This document shows positions 5,617-58,342 of a stretch of 64,000 nt of DNA, in pieces. The notes under the pieces are model-generated. The model searched no databases. It saw only the letters and a list, made by a program, of their open reading frames with translations, and was not told the DNA's origin. The position numbers and the translations under genes were made by a program. How positions within the stretch are numbered: position 1 is the first letter of the stretch; the number at the start of each line of letters is the position of its first letter. The DNA is from Alphaproteobacteria bacterium (GTDB taxonomy: Bacteria > Pseudomonadota > Alphaproteobacteria > Bin95), in the NCBI GenBank assembly GCA_965261985.1, contig OZ253490.1, forward strand, positions 1,511,947-1,575,946. The letters are read 5' to 3'.

Positions 5617-6897
<1,281 letters not shown>

Positions 6898-6914
6898 CTC
6901 TCTGGATTCAGGTG

Positions 6915-7520
6915 TCAGGTGTCCGCCGTCCACAGGCACCAGACGGCGAGCAGCGGCGTTTCGCCGGTGCGCATGGCGTGCCAGGCATGGGGCGGGTTGT
7001 GCTGGATACCGCCCGCCGGCCGCGCCCGCCAGCCCAGGTCCTCGCGCCACCAGTCGCCGGGCGCAAGCACGAAATACAGCTCCTCCGGCGGGTGGTTATG
7101 CTTCACATAGTCGGTGTGCGGCGCGACGAGGTTCACCCCGACACGCACATCCTCGCGCCGTTCCAGCCCGTCCGCGCCCGCTACCACGGCATTGGCATGG
7201 GCCTTGCGGAAGGCCGGGTCGGCGCCCTCGCCGCCGAGGCGCGGCCCCCAGGCGAGCCGGGGGTCCATGGCCCGGAGCGCGCCTGCGACCTGCTGCACCG
7301 GCTCCGGCCCCCGCGCCGCAAGCGCGAAGGCCTCGTCCAGCGCGCCTGCCGGGATCGGCCGGCTCGGGCGCATGCCGGCGGGCGGCGGCCTGCCAGGCGT
7401 TTCCAGCGCGTCGAAGATGCGCGCCGCAAGCGCGGCTTCCGGCCCGCCGGGTGGCACGGCCTCCCGCACCGCGCGGCCGAGCGCACGGAAGAAATGATCG
7501 AGATCGGCAGCCCTTATCAA
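6915..7520 (-). CDS. cupin-fold protein, DMSP lyase DddL-like family
   Basis: Cupin motifs HNHPPEELYFVLAPG and PPHAWHAMRTG resemble DddL. The start is uncertain: a TTG at 7520 is proposed to avoid overlap with the upstream gene. Confidence 0.45.
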   Translation of the reverse strand: MIRAADLDHFFRALGRAVREAVPPGGPEAALAARIFDALETPGRPPPAGMRPSRPIPAGALDEAFALAARGPEPVQQVAGALRAMDPRLAWGPRLGGEGADPAFRKAHANAVVAGADGLERREDVRVGVNLVAPHTDYVKHNHPPEELYFVLAPGDWWREDLGWRARPAGGIQHNPPHAWHAMRTGETPLLAVWCLWTADT

Positions 7521-41163: not shown

Positions 41164-41979
41164 TCAGCCGGGCAGGTCTCCGGGGCCGCGCGATCCGTAT
41201 GTCAAGATCCGGCCCCGCTGGCGGGTGCGCACAGTAAAGCCGGCGTCGCGGAGCAGCGTCTCGCAAGCATCGCTTGTCCGGCTGCCCTGGCGTTCGGGGC
41301 CGGTGTCGATGGCGATGCGCGCCGTCCGCCGGAGCAATTCCCGCCCGCCTTCGAGCACTTCCGGTTCCGCGCCTTCGGCATCGCATTTGAGGAACGCCAG
41401 CGCGTCTATCCCGTGGTCCTCGGCAATCCGGTCCAGCGTGGTGGCCCGGCGGCTGACCGTGCCTGTAGCGCTTTCAGCGTCGTCTGCGCCGAAAATCGAG
41501 CTGTCCGCCTGCGAAGCGGCAAGGCTGAATGTCAGCTCTTCCTCTGCGTTCCAGACCAGCGCGTCGATGACGGTCAGCGAGTCCCGGCCCGCCAGATTCC
41601 GTCGGAGGCAGGCCAGCGCGTCCGGGTCGGGTTCGACCGCATAGACGGTCCGCCCTTCGTTCAGGGCCAGTAGCGAGAACTCTCCGGCATATGCGCCAAT
41701 GTCGAGAACCGGGCCGGGCGGCGGGGCGAGGGCGCTGAAGAAATACTGTGCGTCGAGGCTGCTCAGGCGGGCGGCTAACCCCCTCCTGTAGCGCAGCCAG
41801 CTCGCCGGCGAAACGCCGAACACCGAGCCGTCCGGCGCCGCAATTTCGCAGTAGCCGTCCACTTCCCGCAATTGCAGCGGGACGCGTCGTTGATAGCCCA
41901 CCGCTGCGTAAAACCGGTGACGCGCGAATTTGAACCGCGCGGCCGGCGGCAGCCCTCTGGCGTCCTTGCGAACCGTCAT
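41164..41979 (-). CDS. FkbM-family methyltransferase
   Basis: DIGAYAGEF SAM-binding motif and FkbM domain layout. Start ATG at 41979. 271 aa. Confidence 0.7.
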   Translation of the reverse strand: MTVRKDARGLPPAARFKFARHRFYAAVGYQRRVPLQLREVDGYCEIAAPDGSVFGVSPASWLRYRRGLAARLSSLDAQYFFSALAPPPGPVLDIGAYAGEFSLLALNEGRTVYAVEPDPDALACLRRNLAGRDSLTVIDALVWNAEEELTFSLAASQADSSIFGADDAESATGTVSRRATTLDRIAEDHGIDALAFLKCDAEGAEPEVLEGGRELLRRTARIAIDTGPERQGSRTSDACETLLRDAGFTVRTRQRGRILTYGSRGPGDLPG

Positions 41980-42095
41980 GTCTTCCCGCTTGCCCTGCAC
42001 TCGCCCGCCGGGAGCAATGCCTTGGCTCTTATCATGACACCGGTCCCATGTCTTGCCGCCGGTAAACCGAAGCGGCGTTCGGGGTTGGAAGAGCG

Positions 42096-43001
42096 ATGAC
42101 ACCCCTCCGGCTGATCCCGAGGCGCATGCTGCCGCGCAATGCGTGGGGGGACAGGGAGTTCTGTCGGCGGCGGTTCGTGCGGAGGCAAGGGCGGCGACCG
42201 GGTCTGCGCGGTTCGGAGCGCCTCACCGACCTGCTCTACAGGATTAAAACAGATGGTTCGCTTCTCGACCCTCTGTGCCAGTTCGTGACCGACAAGGAGT
42301 TTGCGAAGCAATATATCGAGAACGCGGTCGGCCCGGGTTATGTGCCGGAGACCTATAAGGTCTTGAGAAACGCCGAGGACATAAGAGCTTTCGTCCCTGA
42401 TCGCGCCCCCTGCGTGTTGAAGCCAACGCATTTGAGCGGCCCGGTTCTCTTCCATACTGACCCGGACGAGGACATTGACCGCGACCTGCTTTTCGAATGG
42501 CTGAAGAAGGAGCGATATACCAGCACAAGGGAGGCCAATTACCGCTTCCTCCGGCCCAAGGTCATTGTCGAGGAATTCCTATCTGAGGACGGCGTGTCCG
42601 TGCCGAAGGATTACAAGCTGTTCTGCTTTCGCGGAGTCCCGAAGATGGTCCAGGTGGACTCGGACAGATTTGGCGAACACACGCAGAATTTCTACGATTT
42701 GGATTGGAATCGGTTGCCAGTCACCTATGGCGTGCCAACCGGGCAAGAGGACGACGACAAGCCACGGCTGTTGGACGAAATTCTAACCGTGTCGTCAAAA
42801 TTATGCTCGCCCTTCTCGTTCGTTCGAGTGGACTTGTATGTGAGCGAGACAGTCATCAAGGCCGGCGAACTGACATTCAGCCCGCGAGGTGTGAACGATT
42901 TGCTGCTTCCGCCCGCCGCCGACATCGAACTCGCAAAGCTCTTCGACCCGGATTACCGGCTGGATGCGAGGGCCTGCGCCGAGGCATGGGCGAACGGTTA
43001 A
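42096..43001 (+). CDS. ATP-grasp fold protein, TupA-like (teichuronopeptide-type amidoligase family)
   Basis: DYKLFCFRGVPKMVQVDSDRF..HTQNFYDLDWN and SPFSFVRVDLY match the TupA-like ATP-grasp family. The gene body is visibly lower in GC. Confidence 0.6.
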   Translation: MTPLRLIPRRMLPRNAWGDREFCRRRFVRRQGRRPGLRGSERLTDLLYRIKTDGSLLDPLCQFVTDKEFAKQYIENAVGPGYVPETYKVLRNAEDIRAFVPDRAPCVLKPTHLSGPVLFHTDPDEDIDRDLLFEWLKKERYTSTREANYRFLRPKVIVEEFLSEDGVSVPKDYKLFCFRGVPKMVQVDSDRFGEHTQNFYDLDWNRLPVTYGVPTGQEDDDKPRLLDEILTVSSKLCSPFSFVRVDLYVSETVIKAGELTFSPRGVNDLLLPPAADIELAKLFDPDYRLDARACAEAWANG

Positions 43002-43181
43002 TTGGCGGTCAGGCACTTGCCGCTGGAGACGATGACCATGCGCCTGACGGGCGGCGGCAGCGACCGCCGCCTGCGGGCGTTCTTTTCCCTTACCCTGCTG
43101 CCAATGACCGGAATCGTGGCCGGAAATTCATGGGCGATTCTGGCGGCCATGTAGCAGGGAAACTCGGTGCTCGGTAGTGTT

Positions 43182-43913
43182 TCACTTCGACTTTCGGGCT
43201 GCGTGCATGTGCAGCCGGTCGCCCCAGCGGTAGCAAGTCGCTGCCAGGTGTTCGAGCCGGGTTCGCTTGACCTTTGGCCTGGTCTCGATGGTGGGCGGAA
43301 CGCCCGCGTGGGTGACGATGGCCGGATCGACGGCGAGGAAGGTCAGCCCGTTCTGCCACCATTCCGCATAGAGCCAGTCTATCGGCGCGCGGATGCGCCA
43401 GCAGTAGTGAAGCAACGCCTCGGCCGCTTCCAGCCGGATGAGATAGCCGACGGCTCCGCCGAAGCGGCGGCGATACCGGACAAGCCAGCGGACACCGTCC
43501 AGCACGGCGAGCGCCCGGTCAATGCGGTATCGCCGTTTCGGCGCGAGGTTCACGATGTCCCATTCCGCATCGGTTTTCAGGATTTCCTCGACGATGACGG
43601 CAAACCCGTCCTCCAGCCGCGCGTCGTCTTGCAGGATGACGGCGTAGGGCGTCTTGGTCTCGACCATGCGTTGCCAGATAAGCCAGTTCGACAGCAGGCA
43701 GCCGATCTGACCCGGAGCCAGTTCGCGGCCCCGCATGATGCGCCACCACCCGGTCTGCATCCGGTGGCGGTATTCGCTCTCGTCCAGTGCGTTCCCGTCC
43801 ACGGCGTCGAAGAATTCGAAGTCGAACCCGGCAAGCTCCTGCTGCATGGCTGCACGGCGCTCGACGTCCCGTGCAAGGGAGATAACGAAGATCGGCGGAA
43901 TGGTGCTTGACAT
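43182..43913 (-). CDS. glycosyltransferase family 25 (LPS biosynthesis Lic2B/LpsA-like)
   Basis: IFVISLARDVERR N-terminus typical of GT25. Start ATG at 43913. Confidence 0.7.
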   Translation of the reverse strand: MSSTIPPIFVISLARDVERRAAMQQELAGFDFEFFDAVDGNALDESEYRHRMQTGWWRIMRGRELAPGQIGCLLSNWLIWQRMVETKTPYAVILQDDARLEDGFAVIVEEILKTDAEWDIVNLAPKRRYRIDRALAVLDGVRWLVRYRRRFGGAVGYLIRLEAAEALLHYCWRIRAPIDWLYAEWWQNGLTFLAVDPAIVTHAGVPPTIETRPKVKRTRLEHLAATCYRWGDRLHMHAARKSK

Positions 43914-44099
43914 GGGGAAAATATACGAAAGTGCCCACGGGCCGTCATTCTGACGGCTTTGGCTCCCGCTTGAGATAGTCCCATTCATCCACGCCGCGGG
44001 GCGGGGCGGTCATCAGCGCACGAAGCACATTCTCCGGGCTGTCGGGGATACGCTCCGGCATGGGCTTCTCGACCGGTCGGTCGCGCTTGTGGGAATGGA

Positions 44100-44912
44100 T
44101 CATGGGCGACCTCCCTCTTGCTGCGGTGTTTCACTGTAGGGGATTCGCGTCTTACGCACTACGCCGAGCGCGGACAGAGTCAACACGCGGGCCTTGTAGG
44201 GAATTACGCCGACATTCCGCCGTAAGCGGTGCCAGACACTGGTACGCCCGCGCATTCTAGCCCTTTCCCGCCACTGCTGTTGATCGGTTCCATACTCCGC
44301 TCTTTGCCTCGCCATATCTGGGACAATCTGCATCGGGCGCAGCCGCCGTGCCGTCTTTGAGTAGCGAAGATCGAACAGGGTATGGTCCACTGTATGGTCC
44401 GGGTTCGCAAACGCCGCCAGTGCGATCTGCGCGCCGCGCCGGTCGATGATGTAAGCGGCTGAGCCCCCACACCATCTCTCCAGCCGCTGTATCGCACGAC
44501 CGGTTGGGGTCCTGCCCGTCGGGCACCACAGCGGCCGAGAGTGGCTATAACCTTCTTCGAGCCTGATGATAAGTCCCTCGGACGGCCACCAATCCGTTTC
44601 AGTCAGCAGGAGCCGCGTGTCGGAAGCCAGTTCAGCATCGTCTTCAAGGATTAGCGCCGCCGGCGCATCCGAGTCGAGAAGCTCGATCATGGCCTTGCTG
44701 TGTCCGAGCATGTTCGCCGCCGATCCGAGGTTGATGCGCCAGAACGGCGGATTGCCGTTGGCGTCGCTCTGCCATTCCTCTTGAGCGGCGAGCGAGCGAG
44801 CATCGACAGCGGGGATGCGCGTTGCCCCGATGCCCAGGCGATCGAGCTGTTCCGACATCATCGCCCACCGATCCGGGCGGCGGTCGAGATTGATGACGAA
44901 GACAGGCAGCAT
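44100..44912 (-). CDS. glycosyltransferase family 25
   Basis: VFVINLDRRPDRW N-terminus, a paralog of the previous gene. Confidence 0.7.
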   Translation of the reverse strand: MLPVFVINLDRRPDRWAMMSEQLDRLGIGATRIPAVDARSLAAQEEWQSDANGNPPFWRINLGSAANMLGHSKAMIELLDSDAPAALILEDDAELASDTRLLLTETDWWPSEGLIIRLEEGYSHSRPLWCPTGRTPTGRAIQRLERWCGGSAAYIIDRRGAQIALAAFANPDHTVDHTLFDLRYSKTARRLRPMQIVPDMARQRAEYGTDQQQWRERARMRGRTSVWHRLRRNVGVIPYKARVLTLSALGVVRKTRIPYSETPQQEGGRP

Positions 44913-45095
44913 GACAGACCCCGCAAGGCCCGTCGCTGGTGCCGGGCCGTTGTGACCGATCCACAGGAATGCAGAGAGTCCTGTCTATTCGCCGGGCATA
45001 GGGGAACAACCACGCGGCCGCGCGTCGGCTGTTCTATTCAGCAGGCGGCCCAACGAAGCGGGATGCCCATGGACTAGTCACGAGGTCAGTCTGCT

Positions 45096-45206
45096 TTACA
45101 GGAAATATCGGCGCAAGCACGCCGCGAGTCCTTCGGCAAGGACGAGCGCGCTTCGTTCCGCGCCGCCGCCGGTCAGGCTGCGCAGCATCAGGCCGATATG
45201 GGCCAT
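45096..45206 (-). pseudogene. truncated N-terminal remnant of a glycosyltransferase family 4 (GT4) glycosyltransferase
   Basis: MAHIGLMLRSLTGGGAERSALVLAEGL parallels the N-terminus of the GT4 at 39926 (MPHIAMVIPSLAGGGAERTALRVAGGL) and stops after 36 codons. Confidence 0.5.
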
Positions 45207-45878
45207 TTCGAGGTCCGACCCCGCCGGGAGTGAAGCTGCGGTTATACAGCAAGCGGTCGGCGGTCGCGGCATCTTCGCCAGAGGCGGCGAGGCGCAATTG
45301 GAAAAATTTCTGTTTTGTTCTCCTGGGGGACTTGATTCTGGAAATTCTGTGGTAGCATGAATCAGGAGCAAGCGGTGTCCGGACGCCGCTTCGCCTGGCG
45401 CCGGCGCGAAAAACACCCAATGGAACAGACAGGAGACGTGTGCCTTGCGCTTGCCCGCGCGCGGGCAATCAGGCGCGCAAAGCCGCGCCGGCGCGAACGC
45501 AGGCGCACGCGCACATGCAATACGCGCGAAAAAGGGCGCTTCCCCGGAACCCGGCGGCGGCGCGAACCGGGCGACCGGGGCGTGGCGGACGGGGGCAGTT
45601 ATCTGCGGGACGGCCGAAGGTCGCGCCATCTTCCCGGCGGCCGCAAGGTGCCATACGAAAAAATTATAAAACACAAAAGAAAACGGTATTGGCTCTTATC
45701 CAGTGCCGTTGCCAGATTGCTGTTGTCCGGTTCGGAGTTTGCCGGTTCCGGGCGAACGGGGTCGAAAACGACGGCGTAACGCCGAAGAGAGGGAAAAGTG
45801 GACGTTCCGAAACAGGCGGCAAACCCCGGGAAGGCACACAACCGGGATGCCGAAAACCGGAAGAGAGGCCGCCGCGCC

Positions 45879-45986
45879 ATGGCGGCTGCGGGGCTCGCGC
45901 CGGCCGTATTGGCCGTGGCGGTCTTCGCGCTCACCGCCGGCCCGGAGCAGGCGCACGCCTGCTTCCTCGGCATCCCCTGCCGGTAG
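45879..45986 (+). CDS. small ORF: signal-peptide-like segment plus an 8-aa Cys-containing tail (MAAAGLAPAVLAVAVFALTAGPEQAHA|CFLGIPCR)
   Basis: GAAGAGAGG Shine-Dalgarno site upstream of the ATG at 45879. An alternative GTG start at 45798 adds a basic N-terminal region ending in RKRGRR. Followed by two hairpins, including a canonical intrinsic terminator. Confidence 0.35.
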   Translation: MAAAGLAPAVLAVAVFALTAGPEQAHACFLGIPCR

Positions 45987-46012
45987 CGGTTTCCTCCCCT
46001 GCTACCGGCAAC

Positions 46013-46051
46013 GCAGCCGGCGGGCCCCCCACCCGCCGGCTGCATTCTTTT
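46013..46051 (+). terminator. Rho-independent terminator
   Basis: GCAGCCGGCGGG-CCCCCCA-CCCGCCGGCTGC forms a perfect 12-bp GC stem followed by ATTCTTTT. It is preceded by a second hairpin (CCGGTAGC...GCTACCGG, 45980-46008) spanning the small-ORF stop. Confidence 0.7.
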
Positions 46052-46276
46052 GCGCGGAGGGCTGCCGCCTCCTCCGAAGCTCCTCGCCCCGCTTGCGGGG
46101 AGAGGCCGGGCGAGGGGCAGCGGTGCGGACCTCGACGCGGAGGATTGCGTGGTAAACCTGTTACGGGAGGCGGCGTCCGGCGCCGCGGGACGGCATGGGC
46201 AGCGGTTTTCGGAAAAGCAGGGGAAGGCCCGTCCGGCGGCCGGGGCGCAGGGGGCCTCATGACAAAACATGACATT

Positions 46277-47902
46277 TCGTAACTGCCCAGGATGTTGGTC
46301 GTAGGGGCGTTGGCGCCTGGGGTAGTTTCAGGCGTATCGGATTTCGTCGATGAAGCTGCGAGGCGACCCCATCAGGGTGTTGAGGACGTCCCGGCCCTGC
46401 TTTTGAGCGGTGGCGATGATTGTGCGCAGTATGGCGAAGTCGTCTGCGCCGCTTCGGGAGCGGAAGCCTCCGGAGATTTTCTGGCGCAGTTTCATCATGC
46501 GCAGGTCGCGCTCGGCCTCATTATTGGTGAAGGGGACCTGTGGGTCGGTCAGGAAGCGCAGGGTCTCGTCCCGGCGCTCATGCAGGCGCAAAGCGAGGTT
46601 GTGACCCTTGCGCCGCCTCGGGGCCCCGCGCCGGCCGGGCGAGGAGAGCGGCGGCTGGTTCTCATGGAACGCCATCGCCTCGACAAGCAGCCGGTCGTAG
46701 CCGCGCACCAGACGCGCCAACAAACGCCCCGGAACGGCCATGTCCCGCTCCCGCGCCAGCCGCGCCACGCGCCGGGCCCGAAGCAGATGACGCTGCATGC
46801 GCCGGGCCCAGTCCTCCTTGTCGAACTCCACAAGCGCCTGCAACTCCCGAAGGTGATGCGCGTTGCAAAGCGCATGCTCCACACCCGCCATCGGCCAGTA
46901 GCATTGCCAGTGGTCGTGCACTGCGACCCCGGACACCCCCGCAGGCACGGCGCCGCGCCGCTCGCTCACCCGATACGCCGCCAGCAAGAGCCTGCCCCGG
47001 ACCCGATCCGGGGATGTGCAGATCACATGGAGCCACCGCGTGCGTGCGCCAATGCGAAGTCCGGTCTCGTCCAGATGCTTCACACGCGCCCCGACCGCCG
47101 CAAGCTCCTCTATATGCCCGCCCGCAGCCTGAAAACGCTCCGCCGCACGACGGCTCATCGACGCCAGCGTCGCAGGCGACACGCGCGCTCCGAACAAAAC
47201 CCCCAGAACCTCCGACAGCCGGCGCTCCGGAAGGAACTGCGCATGACGGAGCCATACCGCAACGCCCGAAAGACGAGGGCCATACTGAACCGGACCCGAT
47301 ACGCCATCGGGAAACGCCGCCCGCGTCACAGCCCCGCAACGCCCGCAGCGACACGCATGGCCGCGATGCTCCGTCACTTCCAAAGGACGCGGCTCAGGAA
47401 GGTCGAATACCTGACGCGCTACCGGCGCGCCCACAAAAGACGCTCCCAAAAGAGACGCCCCGCAGCCCCCGCACGCCGCTGGAACATGGTCCTTCACACG
47501 GTCCGGGCTCGCCGTCCGGCACAGCGTCCGGCCCTTGTGGCCCGGCTGACCGCCCGGCTTGCGATCCGTCTTGCCACGAAGGCTCTGTGTGCGGCGCTCA
47601 GACGACGGCTTCTTCAAACCGTCGCTCGAAGGAGGCTTGCCGCTATTGCCGCTGTTCAGACCGAGACGGCGCTCCAGCTCACCTATCCGCTCCCGAAACC
47701 GCGCGGTCTCCTCCCGAAGCGAGGCGTTCTCCTCCCGAAGCCAAGCGGTCTCCAACTCAAGACGCGCGATCTTCTGTCCGGAAGTCTCGGACCCGGCCAC
47801 CCTCAATGGGTCAAACGGCTCGGAACGACTCATCCAAAGGTTGACTCATTTTTCGTTCCCACCGTCAACCCCATAACCAAATCTGACATCCTGGGCAGTT
47901 AC
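46277..47902 (-). mobile_element. IS66-family insertion sequence, single-ORF (ISBst12-like) type
   Basis: Perfect 17-19-bp terminal inverted repeats GTAACTGCCCAGGATGT begin with the IS66-typical GTAA. The only internal ORF is a TnpC-like transposase. The element is flanked by an 18-bp direct repeat GACAAAACATGACATTTC. Confidence 0.8.
46328..47833 (-). CDS. IS66-family transposase (TnpC-like)
   Basis: 501 aa with an N-terminal leucine-zipper-like region, a CxxC...CxxC zinc-finger region and an IS66 transposase core. Confidence 0.85.
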   Translation of the reverse strand: MSRSEPFDPLRVAGSETSGQKIARLELETAWLREENASLREETARFRERIGELERRLGLNSGNSGKPPSSDGLKKPSSERRTQSLRGKTDRKPGGQPGHKGRTLCRTASPDRVKDHVPAACGGCGASLLGASFVGAPVARQVFDLPEPRPLEVTEHRGHACRCGRCGAVTRAAFPDGVSGPVQYGPRLSGVAVWLRHAQFLPERRLSEVLGVLFGARVSPATLASMSRRAAERFQAAGGHIEELAAVGARVKHLDETGLRIGARTRWLHVICTSPDRVRGRLLLAAYRVSERRGAVPAGVSGVAVHDHWQCYWPMAGVEHALCNAHHLRELQALVEFDKEDWARRMQRHLLRARRVARLARERDMAVPGRLLARLVRGYDRLLVEAMAFHENQPPLSSPGRRGAPRRRKGHNLALRLHERRDETLRFLTDPQVPFTNNEAERDLRMMKLRQKISGGFRSRSGADDFAILRTIIATAQKQGRDVLNTLMGSPRSFIDEIRYA

Positions 47903-48062
47903 GACAAAACATGACATTTCATGACATGTCGCGACCGTCCCGGCCCGACGGCGGGAGGGGGAAAAGAGGAGCGGCAGCGACGGCGGGGCGCAGACCATGA
48001 CACGAGTGAGGAATCCGGGCTAAAATCGCGCCTTGTTTCCACAGCAGCCGGGGAGGAAGCGC

Positions 48063-49760
48063 ATGGCAGACGACCGGCATCCGTGGCTCGCGAGCTACCC
48101 CGAGAACATAAGCTGGGACGCGGAGATTCCCGAGGGACCGCTCTTCGCAATCCTGGACGACTCCGTCCGTCGCTTCCCGACCCATGAGGCCATGGACTTC
48201 CTGGGCCGGACCTGGAGCTATGCCGAGCTCGGCGCCATGGTGGACCGCGCCGCCGCCGGGTTCCGTTCCCTCGGCGTGGACAAGGGCGTCAAGGTGGGGC
48301 TGTTCCTGCCGAACTGCCCGCAATTCGTCGTTGCCTATTTCGGCATCCTCAAGGCCGGCGGCACGGTGGTGAACTACAGCCCGCTCTATTCGGAGGAGGA
48401 ACTCGCCTACCAGATCGAGGACTCCGAGACCGACATCATGGTGACGCTCGGCCTGGCCGCGCTCTATCCCAAGATGGCGGCGCTGCTGGCGCGCACGCGC
48501 ATCCGCAAGCTGGTCGTCGGCCAGCTCCAGGACGTGCTGCCCTTCCCGAAGAACCTGCTCTTCCCGCTGTTGAAGCGCAGCGAGATTGCGAAGGTGCCGG
48601 ACGACGGCGACCATGTGCCCTTCCGCCGGCTGCTCGACAATGACGGCCTCCGCGAGCCGCCGGAGATCGACCCGCGCGAGGACATTGCGGTGTTCCAGTA
48701 TACCGGCGGCACGACCGGGGTTCCCAAGGGCGCGATGCTGAGCCACGCGAACCTCCACGCCAACATCCACCAGGCGCTGCAATGGAACCCGACGCTGGAG
48801 CCCGGCAGGGAACGCATGATGGGCGTGCTGCCGTTCTTCCATGTGTTCGCGATGACGGTGGTGATGAACTTCACCATCGCCATCGGCGGCTCCATCGTCA
48901 TGCGCCCGCGCTTCGAGCTCGACCCGGTGCTCCAGGACATCACGAAGAAGAAGCCGACGCTGTTTCCGGGCGTGCCGACCATGTACACGGCCATCGTGAA
49001 CCACCCGAAGCTCGACAGCTTCGACCTCACCTCGATCAAGACCTGCATGTCGGGCGGCGCGCCCTTGCCGGTGGAGATCAAGCGGCGCTTCGAGGAGCTT
49101 TCGGGTTGCAAGCTGGTCGAGGGCTACGGGCTGACCGAATCCGCGCCGATCGCCGCCTCCAACCCCTTCGAGGGCGTCAACAAGGAAGGCTCGGTCGGCG
49201 TTCCGGTGCCGGGCACGACGATCACGATCGTGGACAAGGAGGACCCCCTGAAGATCCTGCCGCAGGGCGAGGACGGCGAGATCTGCATCTCCGGCCCGCA
49301 GGTGATGAAGGGCTACTGGCGCCGGGAGGACGCGACGGCCGAGGCCATTGTCGAGGGCCGGCTGCGCACGGGCGATGTCGGGCACCTGGACGAGGACGGC
49401 TATGTGTTCATCATCGACCGCAAGAAGGACCTCGTGCTGGTGAGCGGCTTCAACGTCTTCCCGCGCAATGTCGAGGAAGCGATCTATCGCCATCCCGCCG
49501 TCGAGGAGGTCACCGTCATCGGCATTCCGGACGACTATACCGGCGAGGCGGTGAAGGCGTTCGTCAAGCTCGGCGAGGGCGCGGCGCTGGAGGCCGAGGA
49601 GCTGCTCGCCTTCCTCCGGGACAAGCTCGGCCGCCACGAGGCCCCGAAACATATCGAGTTCCGCGACGAGCTGCCCAAGACGATGATCGGCAAGCTCTCC
49701 AAGAAGGAGCTGGTCGCGGAAGAAGCGGCCAGGCGGGCAGCGGCGGAAACGGCGTCCTGA
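48063..49760 (+). CDS. long-chain-fatty-acid--CoA ligase (AMP-dependent synthetase/ligase)
   Basis: YTGGTTGVPKGAMLSH AMP-binding motif and GYGLTE. GGGGAGGAAG ribosome-binding site. 565 aa. Confidence 0.85.
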   Translation: MADDRHPWLASYPENISWDAEIPEGPLFAILDDSVRRFPTHEAMDFLGRTWSYAELGAMVDRAAAGFRSLGVDKGVKVGLFLPNCPQFVVAYFGILKAGGTVVNYSPLYSEEELAYQIEDSETDIMVTLGLAALYPKMAALLARTRIRKLVVGQLQDVLPFPKNLLFPLLKRSEIAKVPDDGDHVPFRRLLDNDGLREPPEIDPREDIAVFQYTGGTTGVPKGAMLSHANLHANIHQALQWNPTLEPGRERMMGVLPFFHVFAMTVVMNFTIAIGGSIVMRPRFELDPVLQDITKKKPTLFPGVPTMYTAIVNHPKLDSFDLTSIKTCMSGGAPLPVEIKRRFEELSGCKLVEGYGLTESAPIAASNPFEGVNKEGSVGVPVPGTTITIVDKEDPLKILPQGEDGEICISGPQVMKGYWRREDATAEAIVEGRLRTGDVGHLDEDGYVFIIDRKKDLVLVSGFNVFPRNVEEAIYRHPAVEEVTVIGIPDDYTGEAVKAFVKLGEGAALEAEELLAFLRDKLGRHEAPKHIEFRDELPKTMIGKLSKKELVAEEAARRAAAETAS

Positions 49761-51097: not shown

Positions 51098-51940
51098 CTA
51101 CTCCTCCAGCGTCGGGCCGGCGCCGGTGACGCGGGTCTGGCGCATGCGGCGGCGGAAGCGGTCGGCGTCGTAGCCGGCGCCCCGGTGCAGCAGGCAGCGA
51201 TTGTCCCAGATCACCAGGTCGCCGGGCCGCCAGCGGTGGGTCAGCACATGCTCGTCGGCCGTCATCTCCTCCACCAGCCCGTCCAGCAGCGCGCGGCTCT
51301 CGTCGAACTCCCAGCCCTCGATCTCGCGGGCGTGCGAGCCGATATAGAGGTTGCGCGCGCCGGTGGCCGGGTTGCGGCGCACCAGCCGCTGGCGCACCGG
51401 CGGCAGCGAAGCGGCGTGCGAGGGCGTGACGGCGTCCGGGGCGACCTTCGAGCGCGAGAACACATAGTCGTGGATGCAGACCTGCGGGCCGAGCCGCTCC
51501 TGCTCGTCTTCCTCGATGCGGTCCCAGGCGGCGCGCTGGCTGACGAACAGCGTCTCGCCGCCCTCGTCCGGCGTCTCGTAGGCGCACATGATCGACACGA
51601 AGGACGGCACCGCACGGAAGGACGAGTCCGAGTGCCACATATTGTTGCCGGTCTGGAACACGGTGCGCTTGTGGGCGTTGCCCGCCACGCTGCCGTCGGG
51701 CAGCACATTGCCGATGGTGCCGAAATGCTCGATCCGTCCCTCCTGCCCGAGCACGACATGGTTCGCCTCCGGCTCGCCCAGCCGGCGGGTGAAGGCGAGA
51801 TGCTCCTCGTCGCCGTCCGCAGCGCCCGGCACATGCACGAAGGAATAGCGGTCGATGGCGTCGCGCACCTCGCCCATGTCGAGCTGGCCGATGGGCCGGC
51901 TGTCGAGGCGGACGCCGAATTCGGGGTGGAGCGGGGTCAT
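51098..51940 (-). CDS. TauD/TfdA-family Fe(II)/2-oxoglutarate-dependent dioxygenase
   Basis: HSDSSF with downstream His/Arg (HxD...H) motifs. 280 aa. Confidence 0.8.
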   Translation of the reverse strand: MTPLHPEFGVRLDSRPIGQLDMGEVRDAIDRYSFVHVPGAADGDEEHLAFTRRLGEPEANHVVLGQEGRIEHFGTIGNVLPDGSVAGNAHKRTVFQTGNNMWHSDSSFRAVPSFVSIMCAYETPDEGGETLFVSQRAAWDRIEEDEQERLGPQVCIHDYVFSRSKVAPDAVTPSHAASLPPVRQRLVRRNPATGARNLYIGSHAREIEGWEFDESRALLDGLVEEMTADEHVLTHRWRPGDLVIWDNRCLLHRGAGYDADRFRRRMRQTRVTGAGPTLEE

Positions 51941-52746
51941 GGCATCCCCTCCAGGGTCAGTTGGAAACGGGTAATCTCGGCCATGCCTTCGCCGAACCAG
52001 GCGTCGATGGCGGCCTCGCGGCGCCCGAGATAGACGGGCCTGCCGTCATCGCCCAGCACCATCGGCAGGTCGTGGCCGGGAATCAGCACGGTGCCGGGCC
52101 GGGCGCGCCAGAACTCGCGGATCGTCTCTATGGAGGCGCGCGAGACGGCGGCATCGAAGGTCATGTCCACATCGCCGGAGACGAGCTCCGCGCGGTTCTT
52201 GGCGGCGTCGCCCGTGAACACGACATCGCGCTCGGCCCCGACGAGCCGGAACACCAGGCAGCCCGGCGTGTGCCCCGGCGCCAGATGGGCGGAAATGCCG
52301 GGGAACACATCCTCGCCGTCCGCGACCCGCTCGGTTTTCGGGAAGAGGCCGAGTTCGCGCACATAGAGTTCCGGCACCACCGTCTCGCCCCAGGGCTCGC
52401 CCGCCGCCCAGTCGAGTTCGACCGCGCCGACCGCGACGCGCGCGTTCGGAAACAGCACCCAGTTGACCGCATGGTCGTAATGGGTGTGGGTCAGCAGCAG
52501 GTCGGTAATGTCGGAAGGCTTGAGGCCGCGTTCGGCGAGCGCCGCGGCGAGCAGCTTGCGGTGGCCGAATGCGCCGCAATCCACCAGCGCCAGCCGGTCC
52601 CCGCGGCGGACCAGCACGATAGTGCTCCAGCCGAGCGAGCCGTGGCGCACCGACTTGCCGGGAAAGCCGGTGACGAGGATATCGACTTCCCAGCCGCCGA
52701 CCGCGAAGGCCGACCCGTTGACCGGGTCCGGAATTTGCTGCGTCAT
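51937..52746 (-). CDS. MBL-fold metallo-hydrolase
   Basis: THTHYDH (HxHxDH) and downstream His/Asp ligands. Start ATG at 52746. The longer 666-aa ORF is an antisense fusion artefact. Confidence 0.75.
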   Translation of the reverse strand: MTQQIPDPVNGSAFAVGGWEVDILVTGFPGKSVRHGSLGWSTIVLVRRGDRLALVDCGAFGHRKLLAAALAERGLKPSDITDLLLTHTHYDHAVNWVLFPNARVAVGAVELDWAAGEPWGETVVPELYVRELGLFPKTERVADGEDVFPGISAHLAPGHTPGCLVFRLVGAERDVVFTGDAAKNRAELVSGDVDMTFDAAVSRASIETIREFWRARPGTVLIPGHDLPMVLGDDGRPVYLGRREAAIDAWFGEGMAEITRFQLTLEGMP

Positions 52747-55093: not shown

Positions 55094-55470
55094 CGCAACA
55101 TCGCTCCTTCGCGCCGCGCAAGACTGCCCGGATTTCTCGCCATTGTCATGGTCTGCGCGGCCCGAAGGCGCCGCCCTTCCCAACGCATCCGCGCAGTGCA
55201 GACTTCACACAGGAAATGGCGTGCTAGAGCGGAATCCTTTCGGCTTGGATCGCATTTCGGACCGAACCCACAATCGTCACCCCGGCCGGAGCGAAGCGGA
55301 GAGCTGGGCCCCGGATCGCAGTCCGGGGCGACGAACGGGACACGAGTCCGGCAGCTATCCGCCCACCGCCAGTCGATTCATCCGGATCGAATTGTGCTCT
55401 AACGAGAGCATCGGTCCATGATCGATGACTGCAATTCGTTCATGAATTATGAAGTAATTCTCTGTAGGGG

Positions 55471-55830
55471 CTTGACCCCTGTAAAACCGTGGTAGGATGG
55501 GACAGGAGGAAGCGGCATCCGGAGGCCGCTTCGTCTCCCGCTTCGCGCCGGCGCGAAAAAACCCCAAAGGAACGGACGGGAGACGTGCGCCCTGCGCTTG
55601 GCTCGCGCGCGCAATCAGGCGCGCGAACCGCGCCGGCGCGAACGCGGGCGCGCGCGCCCATGCGATACGCGCGAAAAAGGGACGCGCCGCAGGCAAGCCG
55701 GCGGCGGTGCGAACGGAACGAAACGCGACGGAGGAACGACATGCGGGATGGAGACAAGCGGACCTCGGACGAGGTCGGTGGAGGCGGGTGTGTCCCGGCG
55801 GAACATGACACATCATGACATTTCATGACG
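55471..55830 (+). repeat. copy B of the dispersed repeat family (short variant) with its own CTTGAC-N17-TAGGAT promoter-like motif
   Basis: 5' hairpin AAGCGGCATCCGGAGGCCGCTT, GC palindromes (TTCGCGCCGGCGCGAA) and a 3' ATGACA x3 at 10-bp spacing (55805-55830). Confidence 0.7.
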
Positions 55831-56120
55831 TTTTCGGGTGTCTCCTCCGGGAGCCGGCGGATGGCGGCCGCTTACTGCCCGGCTGAGCGCTCGGGGGCGG
55901 GGCTGCTTCGTCTCCCGCCTCGCGCCGGCGCGAAACGGTCATGCGATACGCGCGAAGAAGGGGCGCACTGCCGGGAAGCCGGCGGCAGCGCGAACGGCAC
56001 GAAACGCGATGGAGGAACGACATGCGGCATGCAGACGAACGGCGCTCCGGCGAGGCCGGCGGCGGCAGGCGGCGCGCGACGGGTCATGACATCGCATGAC
56101 AGAACATGACATTTCGCGAC
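55831..56120 (+). repeat. copy C of the dispersed repeat family (tandem to B, 5'-truncated/divergent)
   Basis: Shares CGCGAA-rich core segments with B and ends with ATGACA x3 at 10-bp spacing (56086-56111). Confidence 0.6.
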
Positions 56121-56238
56121 AGCCTCTGGGCTCATGGGGATGGATGGAGTTGCGGGCCCCCGCCCGTACATTCCGCCGGCGAATCCCTTGTGGCAGAGTG
56201 GGGGCCGCGCAACCGAGCAGGGCAAGGAGGACCGGGCG

Positions 56239-56601
56239 ATGTTCGACAAGGGGCATCTGGAGTTCCACAGCGTCGATCTGGACACGGGCTGGGAGGTGCC
56301 GGCGGGCTATCCGGCCGGCATCGAGCAGAAAATACTGGCCGGCGGGCTGGACGAGGCGGCCGGGCGGGGCAACCGCTCGCGCCTGCTGCGCTTCGCGCCG
56401 GGCGCCTTCACCACCGAGCCGTTCGTGCACGACTACTGGGAGGAGGTCTATCTGCTCTCGGGCGACCTCGCGGTCGGCGCCGGGGGAGGCGCGGAAACCT
56501 TCGCGCCCAACACCTATGCCTGCCGCCCGCCGGGCGCTTATCACGGCCCGTTCCGCTCCGATGGCGGCTGCATGCTGCTCGAAATCCACTATTACGCCTG
56601 A
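56239..56601 (+). CDS. cupin-domain protein (120 aa)
   Basis: Cupin beta-barrel pattern. AAGGAGG ribosome-binding site. Start ATG at 56239. Confidence 0.6.
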   Translation: MFDKGHLEFHSVDLDTGWEVPAGYPAGIEQKILAGGLDEAAGRGNRSRLLRFAPGAFTTEPFVHDYWEEVYLLSGDLAVGAGGGAETFAPNTYACRPPGAYHGPFRSDGGCMLLEIHYYA

Positions 56602-56812
56602 AGCCGGAGCCGCGATTCACCCGCGTCCGCGCCCTATTTGCGCCCCAATTGGCGGTCATTGTCGCATCCGGCGGCGGGGCTTCCCCGGCCCTGACGCCTT
56701 CATGTCCCCATATACTCTTCCCTGTGCCTTGCGGCCGGCATGGACCCACCCCGTCCATGCCGGCCATTTTCTTGCGCTGCGGAAGCGTACAGGCTTGCAT
56801 CGTAGTGCGGGG

Positions 56813-58342
56813 ATGGCGAAGCTTGGCGGGGACATGATCGCGCTTACCGGCTTCATCGGCTTCCACGCCCGGCGCACGCCCGCCCGCGAGGCGCTCGTCT
56901 ATGAGGACTTGCGGCTCGGCTACGGCGCGCTCTGGAACAACATGACTGCGATGGCGGGCAGGCTCGCGGGCTTCGGCATCGGCCCCGGAGATGTCGTCGC
57001 CGCCTGCCTCAGGAACAGTCCTGCCTTCTACGATCTCGCCTTCGCCGCGAGCCATGTCGGCGCAGTGTTCCTGCCGCTCAATTACCGCCTCGCCGCCGAC
57101 GAGATCGCCTGGATTCTCGGCCATGCCGGTGCGCGCCGCCTGTTCGCCGACGCCGATCTCGACACTGCCGCGGAGGCGGCGGAAGCGGCCGGCATCCCGC
57201 TCACCGCGCTCGACCCGGAGGCGGCGCGCGACAGCCGGCGGCTGAGCGCCGGAGCGCCGGCCCCGCCCGCAGCCGAGGCGGCGCCGGACGATGTCTTCCG
57301 CCTCATGTACACCTCGGGCACCACCGACCGGCCCAAGGGCGTGCAGCACAGCTACACAAACTTCTACTGGAAATGCCTGGACCAGACGGCGGCGCTCGGC
57401 GCCACGCCCGACGACCGGCTGCTGGTGGTCGGGCCGCTCTACCATGTCGGCGGCTTCGACCTGCCGGGCGTGGATGTGTGGCGGCGCGGCGGCTGCATCG
57501 TTCTGCATCGCGAGGCCCGGCCGCGCGCCATCCTGGAGGCAATCGAGGCCGAGCGCGTCACCGGCGCCTGGCTCGCGCCCACGGTCACGAACGGCGTGCT
57601 GGCCGATCCGGATCTCGGCCGCTTCGACACAAGCGCGCTGCAATGGGTGATCGGCGGCGGCGAGCGCACGCCGGAGACGCGCATCCGGGAGTTCGCCGCC
57701 GCCTTCCCCAATGCCCGCTATATCGACGCCTACGGCCTGACGGAGAGCGTGGGCGGCGACACGCTGATGGAGGCCGGGCGCGAGCTGGAGAAGATCGGGT
57801 CGGTCGGGCGGGCGATCGGCCATGTCGAGGTCACGGTGCGCGACGAGGCGGGCCGCGCCCTGCCGCCGGGCGAAGAGGGCGAGATCTGCCTGAGGGGGCC
57901 GAAGATCACGCGCGGCTACTGGCGCGACCCGGAACGCACGGCCGAGGCCTTTTTCGGCGACAGGCTCAGAACCGGCGATGTCGGCTATCTGGACGAGGAG
58001 GGCTTCCTGTACCTCACCGACCGGCGCAAGGACATGATCCTCTCCGGCGGCGAGAACATCGCCTCGTCGGAGATCGAGCGTGTGCTCTACGAGCACGATG
58101 CGGTGCATGAGGCGGCGGCCATCGGCCTGCCCGACGAACGCTGGGGCGAACGCCCGGTCGCGGTCGTAGCGCTCCGGCCCGGCGCCGAACTGACGCTCGA
58201 GGAATTGCAGCGCCACTGCCGCGCCCGCCTCGCCGGCTTCAAGGTGCCGAAGGAGCTCCACCTCCGCCCCGCGCTCCCCCGCAACCCCTCCGGCAAGGTG
58301 TTGAAACGCCTCTTGCGCGACGAGCTGGGCGGCGGCGAGTAA
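56813..58342 (+). CDS. AMP-dependent acyl-CoA synthetase/ligase
   Basis: YTSGTTDRPKGV and GYGLTES AMP-binding motifs. An alternative start lies at 56834. Confidence 0.85.
   Translation: MAKLGGDMIALTGFIGFHARRTPAREALVYEDLRLGYGALWNNMTAMAGRLAGFGIGPGDVVAACLRNSPAFYDLAFAASHVGAVFLPLNYRLAADEIAWILGHAGARRLFADADLDTAAEAAEAAGIPLTALDPEAARDSRRLSAGAPAPPAAEAAPDDVFRLMYTSGTTDRPKGVQHSYTNFYWKCLDQTAALGATPDDRLLVVGPLYHVGGFDLPGVDVWRRGGCIVLHREARPRAILEAIEAERVTGAWLAPTVTNGVLADPDLGRFDTSALQWVIGGGERTPETRIREFAAAFPNARYIDAYGLTESVGGDTLMEAGRELEKIGSVGRAIGHVEVTVRDEAGRALPPGEEGEICLRGPKITRGYWRDPERTAEAFFGDRLRTGDVGYLDEEGFLYLTDRRKDMILSGGENIASSEIERVLYEHDAVHEAAAIGLPDERWGERPVAVVALRPGAELTLEELQRHCRARLAGFKVPKELHLRPALPRNPSGKVLKRLLRDELGGGE

Follow-up and report, generated by a model that had tools for sequence, protein, structure and literature searches.

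The closest described counterparts of the element reported here are of several kinds. The pneumococcal BOX, Neisseria Correia, and enterobacterial REP, BIME, and ERIC elements are based on inverted repeats or palindromes and are 30 to 150 bp long, and REP-type repeats are preferred targets of insertion sequences (ISs). Among arrays of short direct repeats, the sites bound by OmpR-family proteins have a 10-bp period, the Pho box has an 11-bp period, and MraZ boxes comprise three repeats at a 10-bp period. The pac regions of pac-type phages, which overlap the small terminase (TerS) gene (gene 1 in SPP1 and SF6), join a gene encoding a TerS-type helix-turn-helix (HTH) protein to short direct repeats and a promoter of its own. 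Putative mobile promoters are recognized as the same promoter-bearing intergenic sequence standing before unrelated genes in one genome (Matus-Garcia, Nijveen, and van Passel 2012, PMC3488235). The DNA analyzed here is a 64,000-nucleotide stretch (the window) of an Alphaproteobacteria bacterium (GenBank assembly GCA_965261985.1, contig OZ253490.1, positions 1,511,947 to 1,575,946 of the forward strand). The window carries three copies (A, B, and C) of a repeat that an initial annotation had described as novel, and all three are present where that annotation had placed them. A spans 45275-47936, B 55418-55860, and C 55861-56125, all on the + strand and with B and C in tandem. The copies belong to a clade-specific dispersed repeat family with regulatory potential, and no described family was found to match it. 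The closest concepts are modular intergenic repeats, putative mobile promoters, and pac/terS modules, none of which has the combination of features found in this unit.

In both architecture and membership, the family almost certainly consists of dispersed, self-contained promoter-leader-(cargo)-array units that occur in many copies per genome. The order of the parts is an AT-rich tract with a promoter motif, a 5' hairpin, a leader of about 200 nt, an optional cargo, and a 3' array of two to four CATGACA decamers. An exact scan for CATGACA-N3-CATGACA-N3-CATGAC in one genome per species returned at least 112 loci. Among the matches listed, the loci are found mostly in about 14 species of uncultured metagenome-assembled genomes (MAGs) named "Alphaproteobacteria/Rhodospirillaceae bacterium," such as Spongia_Bin9 and SB0661_bin_7, and a few are microsatellites of unrelated organisms. 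The members of this clade are uncultured and partly sponge-derived, and one chromosome, OY730441.1, contains at least 16 array loci spread from 0.8 to 4.5 Mb. A profile of the 5' module applied to the array-selected loci gave 71 sites in 65 loci, and in paired arrays the 5' module always lies upstream, on the same strand, at a distance of 9 to 3372 nt. The association is also seen in a set collected blind to the array. The leader 25-mer GCAATCAGGYGCGCGAACCGCGCCG retrieved at least 120 metagenome loci, including some from the Aplysina aerophoba sponge assembly MKWU01 (PMC5649159), and for 96 of the 121 leaders in this set, at least two CATGAC motifs spaced exactly 10 bp apart lie downstream. 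Most of the other 25 leaders are truncated by the end of a contig, 19 of them having fewer than 300 nt of downstream sequence. When nonredundant 5' modules were pooled (n = 176), an array was present in 150, and 19 of the 26 modules without one have fewer than 400 nt downstream; among modules with at least 400 nt downstream, the array is present in 150 of 157. None of 114 arrays lies within an open reading frame (ORF) of high third-position G+C content (GC3), and the next gene downstream is co-oriented with the array in 56 cases and opposed in 48. In its behavior, the array is the 3' terminus of an independent unit and not the operator of the next gene.

Like BOX, Correia, REP, BIME, and ERIC elements, the unit is clade specific, intergenic, and modular with a variable middle, has many copies (as in the chromosome with at least 16 loci), possibly combines promoter activity with RNA structure, and has three IS types at its arrays. 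It differs from them in its length of 0.4 to 1.5 kb, in being directional, and in combining a complete promoter motif with a leader of 200 nt, optional protein cargo, and an array of direct repeats. As in putative mobile promoters, its promoter-bearing sequence recurs upstream of unrelated genes in one genome; however, it is the whole unit with a defined 3' end that is reused, and about half of the copies are oriented away from the gene that follows. The 23-mer CATGCRATACGCGCGAARAAGGG, which is common to A, B, and C, has no exact match in the species-representative genomes, where the source species is probably unrepresented. In viral contigs, the leader 25-mer has no match and the 12 array matches are unrelated microsatellite-like or low-GC sequences; the unit is therefore not a recognizable phage sequence.

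The array consensus derived from the unbiased set is gcggaC CATGACAAAA CATGACATTT CATGACAyy. Its spacers are position specific, with purines after the first repeat and pyrimidines after the second. Among about 600 nearest-neighbor spacings of ATGAC[AG], 402 are 10 bp, 33 are 21 bp, 2 are 20 bp, 2 are 11 bp, and 18 are 31 to 33 bp. Spacings of 10, 21, and 31 to 33 bp favor recognition of one face of the B-DNA helix, and the array is a putative DNA site for an oligomeric protein, an assignment that we judge to be evenly balanced between right and wrong. The likeness to the PhoB half-site suggested in the initial annotation is not supported: the resemblance extends over 6 to 7 nt, and the period is 10 bp (402 cases) versus 11 bp (2 cases). 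The array often overlaps the last codons and the stop codon of the unit's own cargo gene. On the + strand, three decamers place TGA and ATG in all three frames, which is automatic for any ATGA-containing motif repeated at 10 nt. The array is usually followed by a short GC hairpin without a U-run; an intrinsic terminator at this position was rejected (3 of 66). A role of the array as a promoter, with ATGACA as the -35 element, was likewise rejected on the grounds that no -10 element follows the arrays, and LexA, CtrA, DnaA, and EcfG-type motifs fit neither the array nor the GTTC motif upstream of the promoter. None of the four array sequences looked for was found in the literature searched.

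Upstream of the -35 motif, 45 nt have a mean A+T content of 61%, in a genome with 69% G+C. The motif CTTGAC-N16-TAnnnT is present in 87 of 96 matched copies, the family form being CTTGAC-N16-TAgAAT, and a TG stands one nucleotide upstream of the -10 element in 77 of 96. In a second subfamily, the motif resembles CTTGAC-N17-CTATAT. An alignment of about 50 copies shows conservation of the promoter motif, the AT-rich tract, and the leader, and we infer a sigma-70-type promoter from which the unit would be transcribed. By the Escherichia coli hexamer definition (TTGACn to -10), the spacer is 15 nt, and a generic promoter scan makes no call because this spacer is short. The initial annotation had reported the promoter-like motif in A and B with a 17-nt spacer; the motif is there, with a spacer of 16. 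It had also described compensatory changes in the 5' hairpin between A and B. These two copies alone differ by one G-C to G-U change and one mismatch-to-pair change, without strict double compensation, but compensation is real across the family. In 43 copies, 91% of the cells of the hairpin are paired, both partners have changed in four of the eight pairs, one of the pairs reads A-U in 17 copies and G-C in another 17, and G-U pairs are common, a tolerance that points to a sense-strand RNA. The hairpin also appears in the single-sequence fold of B, whose transcript has a z score of -2.57 relative to shuffled sequences. The leader is GC rich and highly conserved (GCGCCGGCGCGAAAAA; GACGGGAGAcGTGCGCC; CGCGCGCGC-AATCAG-GCGCGCG; CCGCGCCGGCGC; ATACGCGCGAAACAGGG). 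The core rich in GC palindromes that the initial annotation had described is supported. RNAalifold analysis of 43 leaders recovers the 5' hairpin and two invariant GC helices only. The AATCAG hairpin is 87% paired yet nearly invariant, and helices proposed by eye beyond the 5' hairpin have no covariation support in these copies, being invariant or poorly aligned. For the proposed structured RNA leader, clear covariation is thus confined to the 5' hairpin, and no riboswitch-like match was seen. No Rfam family was matched in a scan of the whole window at gathering thresholds; with E values up to 10, the region 55400-56250 gave two chance-level minus-strand matches of 19 and 17 bits against cutoffs of 45 and 70. 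A conserved leader peptide was considered and rejected. The 15-codon ORF (ATGCCNGAA...TCATGA) of one subfamily is the retained 3' coding end of MTATDP genes (see below), and in other gene-less units, it is absent or lacks a start codon.

By content, the 150 units comprise 129 gene-less (86%), 8 TerS-like, 9 "MTATDP," and 4 peptide units, and no transposase, integrase, or recombinase is found among the cargo classes. The TerS-like units (six full and two partial) encode a protein of about 320 amino acids that matches Pfam Terminase_2 (E = 2.8e-13) and PHROG 51 (E = 2.4e-15). By profile, its N terminus corresponds to the DNA-binding domain of SF6/SPP1 G1P (4zc3, 2cmp, and 3zqp; E of about 1.5e-4). 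The predicted fold superimposes on 4zc3 with a template modeling (TM) score of 0.85 and a root mean square deviation of 1.5 A, and the top Foldseek matches are the SF6, PaP3, and NV1 TerS proteins. In the AF2 model, the predicted local distance difference test (pLDDT) value is about 90 at residues 11 to 60, and helices span residues 52 to 106. The domain order is an HTH, a long helix pair, and an acidic disordered tail of about 200 amino acids, and the model thus predicts the structural hallmarks of a small terminase, an HTH with an oligomerization helix pair. The TerS-like family has 299 clusters at 90% identity with at least three paralogues per genome, and several paralogues on one chromosome share 67 to 90% identity. 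The genes are monocistronic and lie among metabolic genes, and their last codons, P-x-H-D-x-x-stop, are the first array repeats. MTATDP units (four full and five partial) encode a protein of about 200 amino acids without a Pfam match; this family has 177 clusters and at least five paralogues in one genome. Both protein families are clade restricted and multicopy. Peptide cargo is found in copy A, in which a 62-amino-acid ORF has a GTG start codon with a ribosome-binding site, a basic and hydrophobic signal-like N terminus, and the C terminus ..PEQAHA-CFLGIPCR. Contig L025 carries a homologue at the same position (..PEPAQA-CLLPGIPC), and both belong to the four peptide units. Cleavage after the AxA site of the 62-amino-acid product would release an octapeptide with two cysteines; such a peptide could be secreted as a signal or a toxin. 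In alignments of orthologous loci, short units retain about 18 codons from the start and about 48 nt from the end of an MTATDP gene. The gene-less units are therefore most likely internal-deletion derivatives that have kept both ends, as the alignment shows for some short units.

Both flanks of the unit are conserved in 59 pairs of loci in this dataset, and no empty unit site was found among them. In the pairs listed, whose flanks are 83 to 100% identical, the gap between the flank matches is never much shorter than a unit. In two of three fully aligned pairs, with coding flanks about 90% identical, promoter and leader are 62 to 94% identical versus 24 to 72% for the upstream intergenic DNA; in the third, identity is even across the region, at about 90%. 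The aligned pairs keep the array but differ in it by the gain or loss of 10-bp units or of a second array. A unit with two arrays also precedes the orthologue of the window's cupin gene (89% identity) on the Aplysina metagenome contigs L141 and L187. The persistence of units at orthologous sites across about 10% flank divergence, together with their better conservation, indicates that they are old, stable, and under constraint.

Copies A and B share about 260 bp at their 5' ends, in which ungapped blocks are 85 to 93% identical and are separated by indels of 1 to 2 nt. These indels indicate that the 5' module is not conserved as a coding sequence, and together with the lack of a conserved start codon, they rule out a protein-coding core. 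An nhmmer profile built from A and B matches the window at 45320-45579 and 55460-55725 (E = 1.1e-82 and 1.4e-82, respectively, values that follow from the construction of the profile) and partially at 55938-56006 in C, and nowhere else. The tandem copies B and C carry no gene and represent a unit of about 0.4 kb. C is truncated at its 5' end, lacking the promoter motif and 5' hairpin, and about 96 bp of the B sequence are deleted from its interior; it matches B in two blocks (55659-55833/55940-56114, 79%; 55524-55558/55901-55935, 94%). A is the third copy, with the small peptide gene; about 680 bp separate its 5' module from its array, and the ORF and a strong intrinsic terminator lie between them. 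The body of B contains a possible 25-codon ORF (55741-55818) that runs into the array and is not conserved as coding sequence across the family; many gene-less units, e.g., that of L005, lack a conserved start codon. The motif ATGACA-N4-ATGACA occurs seven times in the window, all within the three arrays, compared with 0.04 expected by shuffling. The exact 10-bp phasing of the hexamers reported in the initial annotation is correct, with the qualification that the third hexamer of B reads ATGACG; in array A, the hexamers start at 46259 and 46269, instead of 46257 and 46267, and at 47911 and 47921 to the right of the IS. The features of the three copies are listed in Table 1.

Table 1. Coordinates of the parts of copies A, B, and C in the window
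Feature	Positions	Strand	Basis
B, AT-rich tract, UP-element-like, with GTTC motif common to one subfamily	55418-55470	+	Sequence, family alignment
B, promoter-like motif CTTGAC-N16-TAGGAT, TG one nucleotide before -10	55471-55498	+	Family conservation
B, 5' hairpin AAGCGGC-ATCCGGAG-GCCGCTT, predicted at transcript 5' end	55508-55533	+	Covariation, single-sequence fold
B, conserved GC-rich leader	55534-55740	+	Family alignment
B, leader palindrome TTCGCGCCGGCGCGAA	55542-55557	+	Sequence
B, leader hairpin TCGCGCGCGC-AATCAG-GCGCGCGA	55603-55626	+	Sequence, RNA alignment
B, leader 25-mer GCAATCAGGCGCGCGAACCGCGCCG	55611-55635	+	Sequence
B, leader segment CATGCGATACGCGCGAAAAAGGG	55659-55681	+	Sequence
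B, purine-rich Shine-Dalgarno-like leader segment GGAACGAAACGCGACGGAGGAA	55715-55736	+	Sequence
B, variable body, leader to array	55741-55803	+	Sequence
Array B, CATGACACAT CATGACATTT CATGACG	55804-55830	+	Sequence, hexamer search
C, body, 5'-truncated and internally deleted	55861-56084	+	B/C block matches
Array C, CATGACATCG CATGACAGAA CATGACATTT and degenerate fourth unit CGCGACA	56085-56121	+	Sequence
A, 5' module: AT-rich tract, CTTGAT-N16-TAGCAT (45331-45358), hairpin (45370-45391), leader	45275-45579	+	Profile
A, cargo: 62-amino-acid ORF (45798-45986) and intrinsic terminator (46013-46052)	45798-46052	+	Sequence, terminator prediction
Array A, left part, CATGACAAAA CATGACATTTC	46258-46278	+	Sequence
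IS66-family insertion within array A, foreign to the unit	46279-47902	-	Pfam, inverted ends, empty site
Array A, right part, GACAAAA CATGACATTT CATGACATGT CGCGAC	47903-47936	+	Sequence

Tandem copies were also observed on contig L090 (CBDBZZ010000043.1), labeled as a Bryobacterales MAG and probably a misbinned alphaproteobacterial contig, on which four partial 5' modules lie in tandem at 5847-6917, about 300 bp apart. Tandem amplification like that of B and C in the window thus recurs.

The arrays are insertion hot spots for three types of IS. The IS in array A contains an ORF (46328-47833) with the Pfam domains DDE_Tnp_IS66 (E = 9.2e-38), DUF6444, and zf-IS66; its inverted repeats are GTAACTGCCCAGGATGT, with ends that start with GTAA, and these features place it in the IS66 family. 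Its flanks (46261-46278 and 47903-47920) are an 18-bp direct duplication, GACAAAACATGACATTTC; the duplication flanking IS66 elements is usually 8 bp. The claim that array A is interrupted by an IS proved correct, since the uninterrupted site is present in strain-variant contigs L001 and L003, where it reads CATGACAAAACATGACATTTCATGACATGTCGCGAC. The same IS66-type end abuts CATGACAYNYC in L137, L019, and L069. A second IS type (end CACTAGTGTCCGGT) lies at or next to array sequence in five of five junctions, and an IS3-like type (end TGGAGTGGGNCCCTGGGTNCGGACAG) adjoins arrays in four of four. In addition, 21 of the 23 distinct occurrences of the motif TGGAGTGGGCC lie 5 to 7 nt beyond the third array repeat, in some cases as tandem copies (e.g., L142, L157, L192, L220, L228, and L233). 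The motif is identical to the tip of the IS3-like terminal repeat; it could represent solo IS ends or a 3' motif of the unit that the IS3-like element mimics or targets.

In the window, the gene 3' of A encodes a fadD-like CoA ligase (48064-49760), and its start codon lies 128 bp from the right part of array A. B is preceded by a minus-strand APH-like kinase gene whose 5' side ends at about 55093. C is followed by a cupin gene (56239-56601), which starts 118 bp from the 3' end of array C, and by an acyl-CoA synthetase gene (~56813-58342). The start of the latter is likely the ATG at 56813; a mechanical ORF of 748 amino acids (56096-58342) fuses upstream overlap with the synthetase, the cupin being in a different frame, and the same fused ORF was called as a 700-amino-acid protein on contig L003. 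A 33-nt element, GCGCAGACCATGACA-N9-GARRAATCCGGGC, occurs twice, at 47988-48020 (+) and 55126-55158 (-), 44 to 76 bp before the start codon of the fadD-like gene and 33 to 65 bp before that of the APH-like gene. Before the fadD-like gene, it has the promoter-like sequence ATGACA-N18-TAAAAT, which may function as a genuine promoter. Strain contig L004 has an insertion of a DDE_Tnp_1 IS at precisely 55125/55126. The region at ~41200-45260 has a lower G+C content (54 to 66%) and contains glycosyltransferase genes, including a GT25 gene at 44100-44912; it is swapped for other genes in strain contigs L001 and L002, and copy A lies at its border with the conserved fadD cluster. For the conserved gene cluster between A and B (region of 51937-52033 in the window; 7737-8024 in L001), the strain-contig gene calls include one BrnA-antitoxin-like gene and one metallo-beta-lactamase-fold gene.

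The explanation that we favor, and hold to be about an even prospect, is an expression unit that combines a sense transcript with an array serving as a DNA site for a protein. The promoter would yield the sense transcript, the 5' hairpin would protect or mark it, and the array would be read on one helix face by an oligomeric DNA-binding protein. The best, though doubtful, candidate for the ligand of the array is the family's own orphan TerS-like protein, whose gene ends inside such an array. Gene-less copies, which would retain both ends in a MITE-like manner, would imply a cis-acting role for each end. The units of the window may in addition feed transcription into the cupin/acyl-CoA synthetase and fadD-like operons and may place a protein-binding site before them. 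Several points weigh against this explanation. Every functional statement about the unit is inferred, and the promoter spacer is short, at 15 nt by the E. coli hexamer definition. The 21-bp spacing class comes mostly from one subfamily (spacer TTTCCGGCGGGCC), the cases of which are not independent, and constant array orientation and spacing could reflect descent rather than selection. When isolated, the DNA-binding domain of SF6 TerS binds pac DNA with little sequence specificity (PMC4737164), and a TerS-type HTH would accordingly not readily be expected to read a 7-nt motif. Units with unrelated cargo end in the same array, which is therefore not specific to TerS-like genes. No Pfam family of terminase large subunits, portals, or capsids was found within 10 kb of two TerS-like genes, and, with no empty site found among the 59 locus pairs, mobility of the units would be putative.

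The resemblance to phage pac regions bears on a further interpretation. As in SPP1 and SF6, a TerS-type HTH gene is joined to short direct repeats and its own promoter, and the N-terminal domain of the cargo matches SF6 G1P in both sequence and fold. However, the repeats are at the 3' rather than the 5' end of the gene, the cargo gene lacks large terminase, portal, and capsid genes within 10 kb, the array occurs many times per chromosome, mostly without terS, and the protein has an acidic tail that is absent from phage TerS. The likeness to a pac site is one of architecture, namely repeats joined to a terS-like gene, and cleavage or packaging here would be putative. We consider it very unlikely that the arrays are chromosome-wide pac-like or origin-like sites served by several domesticated TerS paralogues, with each unit then being a transcription-activated entry point for transactions on host DNA, for example directional packaging into particles of the gene transfer agent (GTA) or phage type or the hijacking of an infecting phage's terminase as a defense. 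If true, this would mean genome-wide, host-encoded packaging signals in sponge symbionts and would explain the homing of ISs to arrays.

Other explanations dispense with the protein-bound DNA site. The unit could mainly be a noncoding RNA gene whose CAUGACA repeats bind an RNA-binding protein or RNase, or, in a variant that we judge together with it, the array could be a three-frame stop/start block that frees ribosomes and insulates the downstream sequence; taken jointly, these are unlikely. The conserved promoter motif directly before a hairpin with covariation and G-U pairs, the constant orientation of the array relative to the promoter, the fold of B, which is somewhat better than that of shuffled sequences, and the 86% of units without an ORF are all consistent with an RNA gene, and the TGA and ATG triplets in three frames and the cargo ORFs that end in the array are consistent with its variant. 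However, the three-frame property comes automatically with the motif and its period, spacings of 21 (not 20) and 31 to 33 bp fit a DNA helix whereas RNA imposes none, convincing covariation ends with the 5' hairpin, Rfam gives no match, and intrinsic terminators that could set a 3' end after the array are too rare (3 of 66). It is quite unlikely that the copies are decaying, functionless remnants of a phage-derived selfish gene family (TerS-like/MTATDP), with those of the window being junk that by chance lies before ligase operons. Random decay would be expected to eliminate the promoter or the array in many copies, yet the array is kept by 150 of the 157 modules with at least 400 nt downstream; promoter, leader, and array are better conserved than adjacent intergenic DNA in two of three pairs, and units persist across the flank divergence noted above. 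These observations outweigh, in our reading, the alignment of short units as internal deletions of MTATDP units, the existence of partial copies (C, the four tandem modules of L090, and 5'-truncated profile matches), and the clade-restricted, multicopy nature of the two protein families.

A conventional DNA transposon family with MITE-like derivatives, the ends of which would be the 5' module and the array, is highly improbable. The copies are dispersed and multicopy, occur in tandem (B-C in the window and L090), and include internally deleted forms with both ends kept, which in the aligned short units resembles the derivation of MITEs. Unlike the ends of MITEs and ISs, however, the 5' end (AT tract and CTTGAC) is unrelated to the 3' end (array and GC hairpin), and a search for inverted repeats gives the IS66 ends only. 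The cargo includes no transposase, integrase, or recombinase, no target-site duplication was seen in flanks that were not systematically searched for one, and copies are stable at orthologous sites, with no empty site among the 59 locus pairs. In addition, three genuine IS types insert into or beside the array, which is not their end. The model of the initial annotation, in which the array is an OmpR/PhoB-type operator of acyl-CoA ligase operons and the element is their leader or riboswitch, appears extremely unlikely. It draws on the short distances from the arrays to the cupin-acyl-CoA synthetase and fadD-like start codons, on a single CCATGACA box in the 33-nt element common to the fadD-like and APH-like upstream regions, on the suitability of 10-bp direct repeats for OmpR-family binding, which is established knowledge, and on the unit upstream of the cupin orthologue of another species. 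The constant position upstream of acyl-CoA ligases was not borne out, as an AMP-binding homologue is present within 8 kb at only about 6 of about 95 array-found clade loci; the association is a local circumstance, though the link to the cupin operon is conserved between species. The orientation of the downstream gene is near random (56 co-oriented versus 48 opposed), the array is tied to the 5' module upstream and not to the downstream gene, and arrays overlap the 3' ends of cargo ORFs. The array does resemble OmpR/PhoB and MraZ boxes in having three to four short direct repeats one helical turn apart, but it is not positioned relative to a downstream promoter, and no response-regulator or other DNA-binding domain was found in the 20 neighboring ORFs scanned (36.6 to 41.1 and 44.1 to 64 kb, with 1 to 36.4 and 41.2 to 44 kb outside the scan). 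The proposed response-regulator binding array, lacking both a fixed relation to downstream genes and such a domain nearby, is therefore not supported. The Pho box, moreover, has a period of 11 bp, and no riboswitch was matched.

If the expression unit proposed here is real, an uncultured, at least partly sponge-associated alphaproteobacterial lineage would carry many portable and strongly conserved expression units per genome, and these would influence transcription in the neighborhood of many unrelated genes, the CoA-ligase operons of the window among them. In the annotation of these high-GC MAGs, the units account for long intergenic stretches that seem "empty" and for ORFs called in error, and they bear on the question of how repeat families confined to one clade come about, are maintained, and draw in insertion sequences. 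They are also tied to an expanded family of orphan TerS-like proteins and thereby offer an entry point to the role of TerS homologues in bacterial chromosomes.

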